Of a stretch of 28,131 nt of DNA, positions 23,321-28,131 are shown piece after piece. Position 1 is the stretch's first letter. Every line of letters begins with the position of its first letter. The stretch covers positions 1 to 28,131 of the forward strand of contig JANNWY010000008.1 in the NCBI GenBank assembly GCA_031409335.1, written 5' to 3'. This stretch comes from Chthoniobacteraceae bacterium (GTDB lineage: Bacteria > Verrucomicrobiota > Verrucomicrobiia > Chthoniobacterales > Chthoniobacteraceae). A model generated the notes under the pieces. It saw nothing but the letters and a program-made list of their open reading frames with translations. It ran no database searches and was not told the DNA's origin. The translations under genes were made by a program, and so were the position numbers.

Positions 23321-24853
23321 GTGCCCGCGTTTCTCCAGCCTGTGAAATCCACCGCCGCCAAGAAGCCCGAGGTCTCGCCCCCGAAGCACTACGTTCTCGA
23401 TACGAACGTGCTCATTCACGATCCGCAGGCGATGTTTCAGTTTGAGGACAATGTCGTCTGGATTCCCGTGGAAGTGCTCGAGGAGCTGGATCGTTTCAAA
23501 TCCGAATCGACGACGCGCGGGGCGAATGCGCGCGAGGTGCATCGGAAGTTGAGCGAGCGGTTTAAGACGACGGAGCAGATGAAAGTCGGGGTGAAGCTGG
23601 AAAATGGCGGGCACCTTCAGGTGTGCGTGAATCCGAACATTCAGTTCGACAGCAAGGGGAACATGCAGCTCCTCCACGAATCCGCCCGCGCCGCGCTGGT
23701 GCGGACGATTTTCAGCGACCTGGCGCTGACCGACAATCGCATCCTCGCCAGCGCCGCGTACCTCGCGGACACGCGCTCGCCGCACACGATCCTGGTGACG
23801 AAGGACATCAACATGATGCTGAAGGCGCGGACGCTCGGGATCGAGGCGCAGGATTACCGGACGGATCGCGTGGAAGACAGCGACATCCGGCGCACGCAGC
23901 GGCGCAGCGGGCAGGAGGACTATGAGGCGATGGATATTCCGGGGCATACGTTGCAGGCGTTTGCGAGTCAGGAGCGGATCACGCTGACGGGCGGGCGCGC
24001 GTTTTTGCCGAATCAATATGTGCTGCTGCGCAATGAGGAGGAGCCGTCGCATGGCGTGCCCGCGCGGCATATCGCGAATGGGGAATTTCAGAGGCTGCAT
24101 CACGACCGGATCAATATCCGCGGTGGACGGAGTTTTACGGCGGCGAATCTGGGGCAGCACTTCTTACTGGATGCGCTGTTCGATCCTGATCTGACGCTGG
24201 TGACGGTGTATGGAAAAGCGGGCACGGGGAAGACGCTGCTGAGCGTGGGCGCGGCGCTAGAGCAGGTGCAGTGCGGGGAGTATGAGAAGATGCTCATCAC
24301 CCGCGTCATCATGCCGACCGGGAAGGACATCGGATTTTTGCCGGGAAAGATGGAAGAGAAGATGCAGCCGTGGGTGCAGCCCGCGTACGATGCGCTGGAG
24401 CAATTGCTCGCGAGGCCGCGGAAGCCGGAGAAATTTGAGCAGAAAAAACAGAGCGCGCGGAAGCACTACAGCCACTCGGCATCCGCCGAAGTCGCGCCGC
24501 AGAATGGCAAGACCGCGCGACCCTACGAGGCGCTGCTCCAGTCCGGGATGCTGGAGGTCGAGGCGATCGCGCATATCCGCGGACGGTCGCTGCCGCGCGC
24601 GATTTTCATCGTGGATGAAGCGCAGCAGCTCACGCCCCACGAGGCAAAGACGCTGGTGACGCGGATGGGGAAGGGGAGCAAGATCATCCTCATCGGCGAC
24701 CTGGCGCAGATCGACAATCCCTACGTCGATGCGCACACCAACGGCCTCGTTTTCACGCGCAATAAGATGCAGGGGCAGCCCTTCATGGCGCACGTGAATC
24801 TTTTCAAAGGTGAACGCAGTGAGATGGCCGAGGTCGCGGCGAATTTGATGTAA
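23321..24853 (+). CDS. phoH: PIN-PhoH (PhoH2-type) protein
   Basis: PIN motifs YVLDTNVLIHDP, VLEELD, DNRIL and LVTKD; PhoH motifs GKAGTGKT, IGFLPG, IRGRSL, VDEAQQLT, TRMG and GDLAQID. The GTG start is uncertain. Confidence 0.92.
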   Translation: MPAFLQPVKSTAAKKPEVSPPKHYVLDTNVLIHDPQAMFQFEDNVVWIPVEVLEELDRFKSESTTRGANAREVHRKLSERFKTTEQMKVGVKLENGGHLQVCVNPNIQFDSKGNMQLLHESARAALVRTIFSDLALTDNRILASAAYLADTRSPHTILVTKDINMMLKARTLGIEAQDYRTDRVEDSDIRRTQRRSGQEDYEAMDIPGHTLQAFASQERITLTGGRAFLPNQYVLLRNEEEPSHGVPARHIANGEFQRLHHDRINIRGGRSFTAANLGQHFLLDALFDPDLTLVTVYGKAGTGKTLLSVGAALEQVQCGEYEKMLITRVIMPTGKDIGFLPGKMEEKMQPWVQPAYDALEQLLARPRKPEKFEQKKQSARKHYSHSASAEVAPQNGKTARPYEALLQSGMLEVEAIAHIRGRSLPRAIFIVDEAQQLTPHEAKTLVTRMGKGSKIILIGDLAQIDNPYVDAHTNGLVFTRNKMQGQPFMAHVNLFKGERSEMAEVAANLM

Positions 24854-24854
24854 T

Positions 24855-25343
24855 TCAGCGCACCAGCGCGGCGACGAGGAACCACGCGACCATCAGCACG
24901 GCGACCGCGAGCTTTCCCACCATCCCCGCCGTCGTCCCGAGCAGCGTGCCCCAGGTGGATTTCCCCGCTGGGAGCAATTCCTTCCCGCCGAGCATCTCCC
25001 CAAGCAGCACGCCGATCATCGGCCCGAGGAAAAGCCCAAGCGGGAAAAAGAACACGCCCACGATCGCGCCGAGGATGCCGCCGATCGCGCCCCAGCGCGT
25101 CGCGCCAAACCACTTCGCGCCGAGCGAGCCGCACACGATATCCAGTAGGAAACTCACGACCGTCAACACGCCCAGCCCGGCGATCGTCCACCAGCCGACG
25201 CTGTGCGCCTCGCCGAGCATGAAGTGATGCAGGATCGCCGCGCCGAGGATGATCGTCGTCCCCGGCAGCAGCGGCACGACGGTGCCGATCACGCCGACGA
25301 GCATCAGGAAAAGGGTGAGCGTCCACCAGAGCGTCGAGGTCAT
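24855..25343 (-). CDS. DUF456 family membrane protein
   Basis: GVIGTVVPLLPG, GAKWFGATRWGAIGGILGAIVG, GPMIGVLLGE and GTLLG. Confidence 0.88.
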   Translation of the reverse strand: MTSTLWWTLTLFLMLVGVIGTVVPLLPGTTIILGAAILHHFMLGEAHSVGWWTIAGLGVLTVVSFLLDIVCGSLGAKWFGATRWGAIGGILGAIVGVFFFPLGLFLGPMIGVLLGEMLGGKELLPAGKSTWGTLLGTTAGMVGKLAVAVLMVAWFLVAALVR

Positions 25344-25464
25344 GGTGAAAGTGATGATTTGCGCGCGGGTGGAGCGCAAGGTTTTCCGCCGCAGTGAGGC
25401 GATGTGCATGGGGCGGGCACTTCGGCCTTGCAAAATCATCGATCCCATTTACCCAAATGCACCC

Positions 25465-25845
25465 ATGCCGCTCGCCCGCATCCTCATCGCCGCGCTGCTT
25501 TTTCTCGCATGGATGCCCGCGACGAGTTCCTGCCTGTTGGTGGCGGCATTTCCGGGAGATTTTTCGGATTGCTGCCGGGAAGAAAGCGGGGAGGAAAGTT
25601 CGGCGTGCGATCAATGCGTGACGCTGGAGAATGGCTTTCAGCTTTCGCAACTCCAGCAGTTCACGGTGGCTACTCCTGAGTTCGTGGAAAGTGCGTGGTT
25701 GAGCGGGATTCTGCGCACGATGACGCGCGAGGCTTGCGAAGTGCCGCATTGCCCGGCGAGGGAAGCCCCGCCGCCGATAGAACGGCTCTGGACGTTTGTG
25801 GCCCGCACGGCGCTCCCGGTGCGCGGGCCTTCGCTCGCAGCTTAA
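25465..25845 (+). CDS. Cys-rich leader protein upstream of the metal efflux operon (DUF2946/CzcI-like architecture)
   Basis: N-terminal hydrophobic segment, then C, CC, CDQC and CEVPHC, and a Pro/Arg-rich C-terminus WTFVARTALPVRGPSLAA. Confidence 0.75.
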   Translation: MPLARILIAALLFLAWMPATSSCLLVAAFPGDFSDCCREESGEESSACDQCVTLENGFQLSQLQQFTVATPEFVESAWLSGILRTMTREACEVPHCPAREAPPPIERLWTFVARTALPVRGPSLAA

Positions 25846-25908
25846 ACAGCCGCCCGCCCGGGTTGGCTGTCTCGCCCTCGCGGCGCGCTTTCGCGCGTCC
25901 GCGGCTGT
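25846..25908 (+). promoter_or_regulatory. Alternative RNA hairpins in the leader-czcC spacer
   Basis: ACAGCCGC (25846-53) can pair with GGCTGT (25865-70) or GCGGCTGT (25901-08). The latter overlaps the hairpin CGCGG-CGCGC-tttc-GCGCG-t-CCGCG (25879-25903). Confidence 0.45.
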
Positions 25909-25932
25909 CCCCATTTTGTCCTCATCCTTTCC

Positions 25933-27165
25933 ATGAAATTCCTACTCATCCTTTTCCTCCTCCTGCCGCTCGCGCCGCTCGGTGCCGCCGAAGCGGTGCG
26001 GCTCGACGCGCTCGTCGCGCAGGCGCTCGCGGAGAATCCCGAACTCAAATTTTACGAAGCCGAGATCGACGCGGCGAAGGGCGGGCGGCGCGCGGCGGGC
26101 GCTTGGGCGAATCCCGACGTCTCCGGCGAAGTCGGGCGCAAGCGGGTGCGCGGCGATGTCTCCGCCGAAGGCACGGCGTGGGCGGTGTCGGTGCAGCAGA
26201 GCTTTGAATGGCCGGGGCGCGTGTCATTGCGCAAGGCGATCGCGGATCGGCAGGTGCAATTTGCCGAGGCGGGGCTGGGGCAATTCCGCGCGGCGCTCGC
26301 GGCGCAGGTCCGGCACAAGGGCTACGCGCTTTTTGCCGCGCAGCGGCGCGAGACGGCGGCGGGCGAAATCGCGGCGCGCGGCGAGGAACTGGTCGCCACC
26401 ATCGTGCAACGCGAGCCAGCGGGCGTGGCACCGCTGGTGGAGATGCGCGCGATCGAGGCGGCGGTCATCACGCAACGCCGGGCGGCGAGCGAAGCGGCGC
26501 ACGAAGCGCTGGAGGCGTTGTTTGAACTAAACCAATTGCGCGGGCGGCCCATCGGCGAGCGCTTGCTCATCCTCGAAAGCGCGTCGAATTTCCTCGAGCT
26601 GCCTGCGGTCGAGGAACTGATCCGCCGGGCGGCGGCGGGGAATTTTGAATTGCGGCAACGCGGGATCGAACTCGCGCAGCAGGGCTTCAAAGTGCGGCTC
26701 AGCGAAAACGAAGCGTGGCCGGGCATCACGCTGGGTTCGCAATTCTCGACGGAGAAGGCGGGCGAAAAGGAAACGGTCGCGGGCGTGTCGATCTCGCTGC
26801 CGCTGCCGCTGTGGAATCGCAACGCGGGCAACATCGCGGCGGCGAAGGCGCGCGAGTTGCAGGCGCAGACTTCACTCCGGCTCATGCAGCGCGACATCGA
26901 GCGGAAGCTGCGCACGCACGCTGCGGATTACGCGCTGCATCGAAAGGAAATGGCGCGTTGGAATCCGAAAGTCGCAGAGCAACTGCGCGAAGCGGCGACG
27001 CTCGCCGACCGGCATTACCGGCTCGGGGCGGTGCCGCTCGCCACTTACCTCGAAGTGCAATCGAGCTACCTCGAAGCCCTCGAAGCCATCTACGCGACGC
27101 AAGCCGACGCGCTCAACGCGCTCGCCGAAATCGAACTGCTCACCGGAACCAAACTCATCCAATGA
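25933..27165 (+). CDS. czcC: TolC-family outer membrane efflux protein (CzcC-like)
   Basis: Signal peptide; ALAENPEL, WANPDVS, VQQSFEWPGR, VSISLPLPLWNRNAGNI and YRLGAVPLATYLEVQ. Confidence 0.88.
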   Translation: MKFLLILFLLLPLAPLGAAEAVRLDALVAQALAENPELKFYEAEIDAAKGGRRAAGAWANPDVSGEVGRKRVRGDVSAEGTAWAVSVQQSFEWPGRVSLRKAIADRQVQFAEAGLGQFRAALAAQVRHKGYALFAAQRRETAAGEIAARGEELVATIVQREPAGVAPLVEMRAIEAAVITQRRAASEAAHEALEALFELNQLRGRPIGERLLILESASNFLELPAVEELIRRAAAGNFELRQRGIELAQQGFKVRLSENEAWPGITLGSQFSTEKAGEKETVAGVSISLPLPLWNRNAGNIAAAKARELQAQTSLRLMQRDIERKLRTHAADYALHRKEMARWNPKVAEQLREAATLADRHYRLGAVPLATYLEVQSSYLEALEAIYATQADALNALAEIELLTGTKLIQ

Positions 27166-27851
27166 AAACGCTCATCCTCGGCGCCATCGCCCTTCTCACC
27201 GCCCTCACGTTCAGCGGCTGCGGCCCCGCCGACGCCAAGATGCAGGAACAGCCGCCGGAGAATGGCGCGCAGTTCAAAAAGAACACGGGGCTTTCGCTCA
27301 CCGACACGATGAAGAAAGCCATCGCGCTCCAAGTCGCGGAGGTCGGCGAGGAGAAAGTCGCACCGTCCTTCACCGTCGCGCTTTCGGCAGCGGCGAATGA
27401 AATCACCGGCTGGCTCACGGCGGAACAGGCCGCGCTTGTGAAGCCGGGGATGGAGGTCGAACTGCGCGGCAAAGCACCCGGCGTGGTGAAACGAATCGAG
27501 AAATCGCCGTATCAATCGGTGGGGGATTTCGAGGTCGCCGTAGAAACCTCCGCGGCGATGGAAACGGGTGAGCGCATCCTCGCCACCTTTCGCGCCCCTG
27601 CTGGCGAGGCCGTGGCTTCCGTGCCGCGCTCGGCATTGCTCAAGACGGCGGAGGGCAATTTCGTCTATGCGGTGAACGGCGAATACTACGTGCGGACTCC
27701 GGTGAAAGTCGGCGCGATGGGCGACGCACACGCGGAAATCACCGACGGCCTTTACGCGGGCGATCAAATCGTCACGTCGCCCGTGATGTCGCTGTGGCTC
27801 GCGGAACTCCAAGTCCTGCGCGGCGGCAAAGCCTGCACCTGCGGCCTCTGA
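27162..27851 (+). CDS. Short RND periplasmic adaptor (CzcB-like) lipoprotein
   Basis: ATGA overlap with czcC; lipobox FSGC; VPRSALL, FVY, PVKVG and EITDGLYAGDQIVT; 229 aa; ends KACTCGL. Confidence 0.85.
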   Translation: MKTLILGAIALLTALTFSGCGPADAKMQEQPPENGAQFKKNTGLSLTDTMKKAIALQVAEVGEEKVAPSFTVALSAAANEITGWLTAEQAALVKPGMEVELRGKAPGVVKRIEKSPYQSVGDFEVAVETSAAMETGERILATFRAPAGEAVASVPRSALLKTAEGNFVYAVNGEYYVRTPVKVGAMGDAHAEITDGLYAGDQIVTSPVMSLWLAELQVLRGGKACTCGL

Positions 27852-27879
27852 TATGCTGCACCGCCTGCTCGACAACAAA

Positions 27880-27970
27880 GTGGCACAGGCATCCTGCCTG
27901 TGGGGCCAGCGGGCATCCTGCCCGCAGCGGCTACACAACACACGCAATGCAGGCGGGACGCCTGTGCCAC
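27880..27970. repeat. REP/BIME-like palindromic element
   Basis: GTGGCACAGGCATCCTGCCTG (27880-27900) and inverted CAGGCGGGACGCCTGTGCCAC (27950-27970) match at 19/21; internal third unit GCGGGCATCCTGCCCGC (27909-27925). Confidence 0.85.
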
Positions 27971-27974
27971 ACTG

Positions 27975-28131
27975 ATGCCGCACCGACTCATCGAACTCGT
28001 GATGCGGCAACGCGCCGCCGTGCTGCTTGCGACCGTGCTGCTCATCGGCGTCGGCGGGTGGGCGGCGCTGCGGCTACCGATTGACGCCGTGCCGGACATC
28101 ACGAATCCGCAGGTGCAAATCAACACCGCCG
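27975..28131 (+). CDS. czcA: CusA/CzcA family heavy-metal RND permease, partial (N-terminus only)
   Basis: Not in the ORF track; reads MPHRLIELVMRQRAAVLLATVLLIGVGGWAALRLPIDAVPDITNPQVQINTA, containing the HME-RND signature LPIDAVPDIT. Confidence 0.92.
   Translation, partial: MPHRLIELVMRQRAAVLLATVLLIGVGGWAALRLPIDAVPDITNPQVQINTA

Follow-up and report, generated by a model that had tools for sequence, protein, structure and literature searches.

The stretch analyzed here, called the window below, comprises 28,131 nucleotides (nt) of a Chthoniobacteraceae bacterium (Verrucomicrobiota; contig JANNWY010000008.1 of assembly GCA_031409335.1) and ends within a czcCBA operon for a resistance-nodulation-division (RND) metal pump, which is headed by a small open reading frame (ORF). 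This leader ORF (25465..25845, + strand) encodes 126 amino acids (aa). An 87-nt spacer (25846-25932) separates it from a gene for a czcC-like outer membrane factor (25933..27165, +; OEP family PF02321, E 1.7e-35), followed by a short CzcB-like periplasmic adaptor (27162..27851, +; TIGR01730 at E 2e-13 and TIGR00999 at E 1e-9, neither reaching the cut-off) and the first 52 codons of a CusA/CzcA-family RND permease (27975..28131, +; PF00873; TIGR00914 at E 1e-11), which is cut by the contig end. The leader ORF is real and conserved, and very likely regulatory. A first-pass annotation had described its hydrophobic N terminus, the groups CC, CDQC, and CEVPHC, an LPVRGPS sequence before the stop codon, the 87-nt spacer, and czcC, all of which we found in place.

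The leader protein begins with a predicted export signal (residues 1-22; 25465..25530, +), judged by hydropathy (2.0-2.5) and by a helix at residues 2-20 in its AlphaFold2 model rather than by a signal-peptide predictor. Its cysteines include a CC pair (36-37), CDQC (48-51), and CEVPHC (91-96). A set of five, C23, C36, C37, C48, and C51 (25531..25617, +), is kept in 89, 81, 89, 91, and 92 of 98 aligned proteins, respectively, and forms a putative metal site. The CEVPHC group, also proposed as a ligand cluster in the first pass, is ruled out as such by its lack of conservation (C91 in 1, H95 in 2, and C96 in 2 of the 98). Further along lie a proline patch (102-104) and W109, 11 residues before the motif arginine (25768..25791, +). 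The protein ends ALPVRGPSLAA, so that LPVRGPS is followed only by LAA and the stop codon. Within this tail, the putative arrest motif ALPVRGPS (25810..25833, +) has P118, R120, and P122 invariant in 98/98 proteins. The low-confidence AlphaFold model (predicted TM score 0.25) has four helices without a compact fold; a PDB fold search with it was empty, and the protein matched no Pfam or NCBIfam family.

Searches for homologues returned first 14 and then 97 proteins, and 675 cluster representatives at E<=0.001. The named records are from Chthoniobacteraceae and other Verrucomicrobiota metagenome-assembled genomes. Leader matches occur in 78/151 genomes of the window's family and in 32/401 sampled genomes of its phylum; of the 32, 28 belong to one other family (f10). 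All 98 aligned proteins carry an R[GA]P[SA] tail 2-4 residues before the stop (88 RGPS, 8 RAPS, 2 RGPA), and in all 84 of them that have CxxC, the distance from CxxC to the arginine is 65-72 aa (mode 69). Among the best 150 of the 675 representatives, 81 tails are RAPS, 43 are RGPS, and 10 proteins lack the motif. In 219/219 motif-bearing proteins (of 231), R[GA]P is followed by S, A, T, D, G, or C, against a background of 41%; Ser makes up most of this count (205), in which related proteins are not independent of each other. A tryptophan stands exactly 11 residues before the motif arginine (W-11) in 82/100 loci, presumably near the ribosome tunnel constriction, and a Pro-Pro (PP) pair lies 7-30 aa before the motif in 30/30 loci of the cysteine-rich type. 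Identity clusters in the final 11 residues and at W-11, whereas the body alternates between Cys-rich and His-rich versions that carry the same tail; both kinds are present in the window's genome.

The conserved tail is not a search artifact. A profile stripped of the tail still matched 133/133 further proteins, which the full profile had first brought in; 122 of the 133 have an R[GA]P ending. To avoid circularity, we also started from czcC: among 46 such loci, 45 had enough upstream DNA to be scored, and these carried 24 RGPS leaders (the window's included), 10 ORFs ending I[DE][HYV]PPQ[LV]x, 8 ending [LF][RL][IV]-stop, and 3 with none. The tail, the Cys set, and the first spacer hairpin described below are all conserved across relatives to an extent greater than chance.

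For the gene context of the family, we fetched 137 loci, which gave 116 distinct leader loci (one without the motif), and sorted them into classes by our own rule. An OEP (CzcC-type) gene comes next in 31/34 Cys-type RGPS loci, 25/27 His-type RGP[SA] loci, and 39/39 f10-type RAPx loci, or 95/100 R[GA]P-tailed loci; a fourth, HAPP-type class (15 loci) mostly precedes ~90-aa exported proteins. The leader is the first gene of its operon, behind its own promoter-like element: a -35-like hexamer, TTGCAA (25428..25433, +), lies 37 nt before the leader start and is conserved as YTTG[AC], which precedes an in-frame leader start by 30-42 nt in 72/100 loci versus 14/358 control positions. A sigma-70 consensus scan found no full site. 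From the position of the -35-like element, we infer that the leader's 5' untranslated region is very short.

The tail resembles those of the arrest peptides ApcA, ApdA, and ApdP, which likewise have an R-[AG]-P core near the C terminus of a small secretory upstream ORF (PMC7897499, PMC10987492, PMC12992588). In ApcA, RAPS is natural and functional and keeps wild-type arrest, and the fourth residues found in the leader family, including Ser, all fall within the set that ApcA permits (PMC7897499), which supports a sensor function. By analogy with ApcA/ApdP-type peptides, the ribosome would pause at RGP|S, with Pro122 (codon 25828-30) in the P-site and Ser123 in the A-site. We are fairly confident that the ORF is a cis-acting arrest leader. 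ApcA, ApdA, and ApdP are reported to monitor Sec/YidC (PMC7897499, PMC10987492, PMC12992588), whereas the signal for the leader family would be metal.

For the metal response, the closest guide is CutF, which stalls in Cu and thereby switches CutO on (PMC9973294; 10.1101/2022.11.11.516240). OEP genes (CusC/CzcC/SilC) are described as the genes that most often neighbor CutF-like leaders (PMC9973294), and CzcI precedes czcCBA (10.1101/2022.11.11.516240). An exporter-linked leader with positive logic is therefore of a known kind, and the opposite metal logic that the first pass had put forward as new loses its novelty, since CutF already stalls in Cu to turn a detoxifier on.

Our preferred reading, at a probability of roughly 0.6, is that the leader is a nascent metal sensor acting in cis, in which bound metal would prolong arrest and raise czcCBA expression, as for CutF. 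Export of the Cys cluster would take place during the ribosome's pause at the tail: about 70 residues separate CxxC from the P-site, and by published lengths, the Cys set would therefore lie beyond both the tunnel and the translocon. Metal bound outside the membrane would then prolong the pause and turn the pump genes on. This part of the earlier proposal, a putative cis-acting, exported, ligand-bearing leader with an arrest-like tail at the head of czcCBA, is supported by comparative evidence. The sensed metal is probably divalent (Zn/Co/Cd/Ni). RND partners at at least 13 related loci carry a GA[IVL]DFG motif, which we take to be CzcA type.

Several points weigh against the sensor reading. 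RGPS arrest, metal binding, and an effect on expression are argued here from sequence and analogy. In ApcA, changing Ala to Gly at position 2 abolishes arrest, and ApdA and ApdP need Pro at position 4 (PMC7897499, PMC10987492, PMC12992588). In PMC10987492, RGPS and RAPS serve solely as query motifs drawn from the ApcA cluster, and the literature searched has RGPS in no other role. Neither motif is depleted among 1957 long ORFs of the window's genome (RGPS, 11 versus 9.8 expected; RAPS, 19 versus 15.1), while RAPP is (5 versus 20.4). The distance from CxxC to the motif is ~69 aa here and 45 aa in the published descriptions of CruR and CutF. Because the czcA in the window is incomplete, its metal class is not readable.

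In an explanation without metal-gated arrest, the protein would be an exported, chaperone-like metal-binding accessory acting in trans, or the leader would monitor secretion or disulfide status, and the hairpins would only stabilize the RNA. The leader cysteines could form disulfides, as proposed for CutF, and CzcI, which precedes czcCBA, is described without a Pro motif (10.1101/2022.11.11.516240). RGPS is not avoided in the proteome, and a literature search, which covered few subscription papers, returned no paper on the leader family or on RGPS stalling. This explanation is hard to square with a family whose identity centers on the C-terminal 11 residues and W-11 and whose body can be either Cys-rich or His-rich, with a leader that is first in its operon behind a promoter-like element of its own, with other small exported ORFs that occupy the same slot and have fixed tails of their own, and with a protein for which no compact fold is predicted. 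We consider this explanation improbable.

The RNA contains three predicted hairpins. The first, hp0, lies in the coding region over the arrest codons (25800..25829, +); its register varies between subgroups, and it is more stable than synonymous recodings in 29/34 Cys-type and 23/27 His-type loci. The arrest codons themselves are skewed toward GGG/GGT and CCT. Hairpin 1 (25846..25870, +) follows directly after the stop codon and is supported by covariation: in 53 spacers, 85% of cells are paired, with 54 double-change cells versus 13.6 in shuffles that do not correct for kinship (0/500), and slid controls are far lower. Counted from the stop, the first 37 nt have a better fold than 95% of their shuffles in 30/34 Cys-type, 27/27 His-type, and 16/39 f10 loci. 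Hairpin 2 (25879..25903, +) has weaker support. In 26 Cys-type spacers, it shows 11 double-change cells versus 4.6 shuffled, and the percentage paired does not rise above shuffles (53/500), while in 24 mostly His-type spacers, 89% are paired. Hairpins 1 and 2 dominate the fold of the window (P 0.97 and 0.96) and end ~30 nt before the czcC AUG. No Rfam model matched (best E 2.1, all far below gathering scores).

The first-pass annotation had read the spacer as a switch, in which 25846-53 would alternate between 25865-70 and 25901-08, remodel hairpin 2, and so control czcC. All three pairings involved (25846-51/25865-70, 25846-53/25901-08 with eight perfect pairs, and 25879-25903) exist in the window, where the 8-bp alternative helix lies only 2.7 kcal/mol above the ground ensemble, and in the 26-sequence alignment its pairing is slightly above shuffles (9/500). 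It is nevertheless a minor fold (P ~0.03) special to the window. For the folding tests, we kept 30 Cys-type, 23 His-type, and 38 f10 loci, dropping those without a clear czcC start, those with a spacer outside 70-150 nt, and three with mis-picked starts. The alternative helix beat shuffled downstream sequence in only 1/30 Cys-type loci (the window itself), 0/23 His-type loci, and 6/38 f10 loci; 53% of cells were paired versus 51.5% in the slid control, and one central pair was broken in 24/26 sequences. Neither fold reaches the start codon, and there is no Shine-Dalgarno (SD) site to hide. We therefore rejected this helix as a conserved switch, and control of czcC through it is very improbable. 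Among homologues upstream of czcC, a comparison that the first pass had suggested, R[GA]P[SA], its distance to the stop, C23/C36/C37/C48/C51, and hairpin 1 are conserved; CEVPHC and the alternative helix are not.

Hairpin 1 is well placed to respond to the position of a ribosome. Its start lies at +18 to +21 relative to the predicted P-site codon in 21/30 Cys-type loci and +17 to +20 in 17/23 His-type loci. Given these distances and general ribosome footprint sizes, a stalled ribosome would stop short of hairpin 1, and a terminating one would open it. The earlier placement of the stalled ribosome beside the first pairing arm was thus right as to location, although such a ribosome would stop short of the arm and not melt it.

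This geometry suits an inverted, CruR-type wiring, in which a default stall would leave hairpin 1 intact for pause- or Rho-linked attenuation, and metal would relieve the stall so that the ribosome melts hairpin 1 and transcription enters czcCBA. Hairpin 1 is the best-supported RNA element, CruR is reported to work by metal-relieved arrest and Rho (PMC9426467), and two Rho-like genes, just under the family cut-off, are present in the window's genome. However, at least five U within the 8 nt after hairpin 1 occur in only 1/30 Cys-type, 2/23 His-type, and 5/38 f10 loci (8/91), which excludes it as an intrinsic terminator, and a scan of the + strand for intrinsic terminators found none. We saw no Rho-loading C>G bubble within the leader, unlike the published CruR; the C>G bubble here lies at least 70 nt downstream of the predicted stall site. 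In f10 loci, the hairpin often starts at +14 to +16, i.e., at the footprint edge, and masking the 5' arm of hairpin 1 barely alters the predicted openness of the czcC start (0.77 versus 0.74). On this evidence, the inverted wiring is unlikely, if somewhat less so than an accessory acting in trans.

How metal-prolonged arrest would raise expression in the preferred reading is its least certain part. A G-poor, C/U-rich, unstructured stretch without an SD site spans the czcC start (25909..25975, +; C 0.41 and G 0.09 at -20..-1 in Cys-type loci). SD-like duplexes precede czcC in 0/91 loci, as judged with the general anti-SD motif, because no 16S 3' end could be located in the assembly. In the window's genome, they precede only 12% of the 1957 long ORFs, whose starts are approximate, and positions -12 to -7 are not enriched in G, which suggests an organism largely free of SD sites. 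A spacer without SD needs a different output.

Our tentative proposal, which we hold with clearly less confidence than the sensor itself, is that a stalled ribosome and a queued one would prevent the G-rich end of the leader from covering the SD-less czcC start. On a ribosome-free leader, the G-rich 3' coding part would pair with the C/U-rich czcC start region, the two being brought together by hairpins 1 and 2, and the untranslated C-rich stretch could then invite Rho polarity as an amplifier. Once these ribosomes mask the G-rich part, the start would become free. In line with this, masking the leader end raised the predicted openness of the czcC start from 0.62 to 0.77 in Cys-type loci (n=30), from 0.68 to 0.83 in His-type loci (n=23), and from 0.64 to 0.88 in the window. 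A different 5' boundary left the window with a small gain (0.79 to 0.85). Leader-to-start pairing was also not specific: native pairing was below recoded in 17/30 loci, cognate did not differ from non-cognate (p=0.90), and in a narrower window, the cognate test gave p=0.056 (Cys-type) and 0.43 (His-type). We thus set aside a specific, co-evolved pairing between leader and czcC start, the controls being negative or marginal. In f10 loci, cognate pairing had an advantage in all four windows tested, which may reflect shared base composition.

Measured against the described leaders, the family is closest to CutF of Rhodobacter capsulatus (PMC9973294; bioRxiv 10.1101/2025.02.05.636593). Both have a small ORF with a signal (Sec in CutF), a Cys metal motif, and a Pro-containing tail; both are first in a metal detoxification operon, with a spacer of <100 nt that contains a stem-loop, and in both metal would switch the downstream gene on. 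The window protein also agrees with the published description of CutF-like proteins (Ozturk 2023) in its length (<150 aa), its N-terminal signal (by hydropathy only), and a same-strand downstream gene within 1000 nt. It departs from that description in lacking PP within the last 15 residues, which only 32/150 representatives have, so the published filter would drop most members. In contrast to CutF as described, the downstream gene, czcC, lacks an SD, and its start lies outside the hairpins; an anti-SD stem-loop switch was rejected on this ground (0/91 loci), and the CutF mechanism cannot apply as published. The string "Verrucomicrob" is absent from the main text of PMC9973294.

With CruR, a DUF2946 (PF11162) protein of Bordetella pertussis (PMC9426467), the leader shares CxxC (C48 and C51 here). 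It differs from the CruR of that account in having RGPS, not RAPP (no RAPP tail occurs among the 98), and in heading an exporter operon where CruR heads a TonB importer. The PF11162 profile matched 0/128 members at E<=0.1, neither the window protein nor any protein of its genome; a weak lead to DUF2946 is one ESM Atlas neighbor cluster with 23% DUF2946. CzcI of Cupriavidus metallidurans, considered here from its description only (10.1101/2022.11.11.516240), is likewise a small ORF directly upstream of czcCBA and a suggested metal-sensing regulator, and it lacks the C-terminal Pro motif. The 2025 arrest peptide survey extracted only RAPP and RGPP, and its main text contains neither RGPS nor RAPS (PMC12992588). 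The family is thus set apart from DUF2946/CutF by profile, by the RAPP tail, by the 45-residue spacing, by the PP filter, and by the SD-hiding stem-loop, yet it likely works like one of them. What is new here, judged by published rules and not by the CutF-like protein list, is an RGPS/RAPS tail outside published filters, Cys-rich and His-rich bodies that share this tail, and other conserved tails in the same slot.

For two copper leaders, CruR and CutF, it has been worked out how a nascent peptide senses metal. Leaders before RND metal pumps are listed as the commonest context, yet the literature found holds no worked-out mechanism for them, and surveys based on RAPP or PP likely undercount such leaders. 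If arrest occurs as proposed, a tail without PP would extend the arrest code, and one genome offers paired Cys-rich and His-rich versions that share a tail, a testable set for metal specificity. A broader view, which we regard as unlikely in its full form, is that a modular kit of nascent-peptide sensors runs metal efflux in largely SD-free Verrucomicrobiota, with swappable bodies (Cys-rich/His-rich) and tails (RGPS/RAPS, I[DE]xPPQL, L[RL]I-stop) that would be read by a covarying hairpin rather than by SD unmasking. The hairpin would distinguish ribosomes arriving at the stop codon from those stalled five codons earlier. If true, both the class of arrest motif and the output mechanism for RND metal pumps would be new.

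Different tails do fill the same slot, since one leader ending in PPQL precedes a CzcC 73% identical to the window's. Ten czcC homologues (L157, L160, L165, and L177-L183; e.g., L157:862-1266, +) have, in place of an RGPS leader, a small exported Cys/His ORF ending I[DE][HYV]PPQ[LV]x-stop, with a hairpin-rich spacer of its own; some of these match the RGPS-family profile weakly, and that of L177 scores 23.3 bits against the DUF2946 profile (cut-off 23.7). Eight others (L164, L166, and L168-L173) have a His-bearing ORF ending [LF][RL][IV]-stop, mostly LRI-TGA, followed by long hairpins. These ORFs are candidate termination-arrest leaders; the three scanned had no Pfam match. The HAPP-type leaders are also candidates for arrest. 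They are Cys-rich relatives ending L.S[HN]APP three residues before the stop (L129 and L130 on contigs C101 and C195 of the window's own genome, L104, L107-L117, and L137), mostly upstream of ~90-aa exported proteins and with spacers of 160-195 nt.

The window's genome also carries a His-rich paralogue of the leader (L128:383-799, contig C171) that shares the TALPVRGPS tail and both hairpins. It heads a second czcCBA, followed by genes that we labeled from their translations as a His-rich membrane protein and a protein resembling the major facilitator superfamily.

On the other side of the window's leader lie a PIN-PhoH fusion gene (23321-24853, +) and a divergent gene for a DUF456 membrane protein (24855-25343, -). 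We saw no sign of a link between either gene and the leader, and the upstream neighbors vary among related loci. In a small sample of eight upstream neighbors from long loci, no transcription regulator family was found (four unrelated Pfam hits, four without a hit). Within the operon, the adaptor (27162-27851) is only 229 aa long and ends KACTCGL, and similar short adaptors occur at related loci. Between czcB and czcA (27853-27980) lies an inverted repeat with 31-nt arms (81% complementary) that resembles repetitive extragenic palindromes or miniature inverted-repeat transposable elements, and its arm motif is present 8 times in the window's genome. The czcA start is duplicated on both flanks of this repeat (MLHRLLD.. 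at 27853 and MPHRLIE.. at 27975); in relatives, czcA follows directly after czcB.

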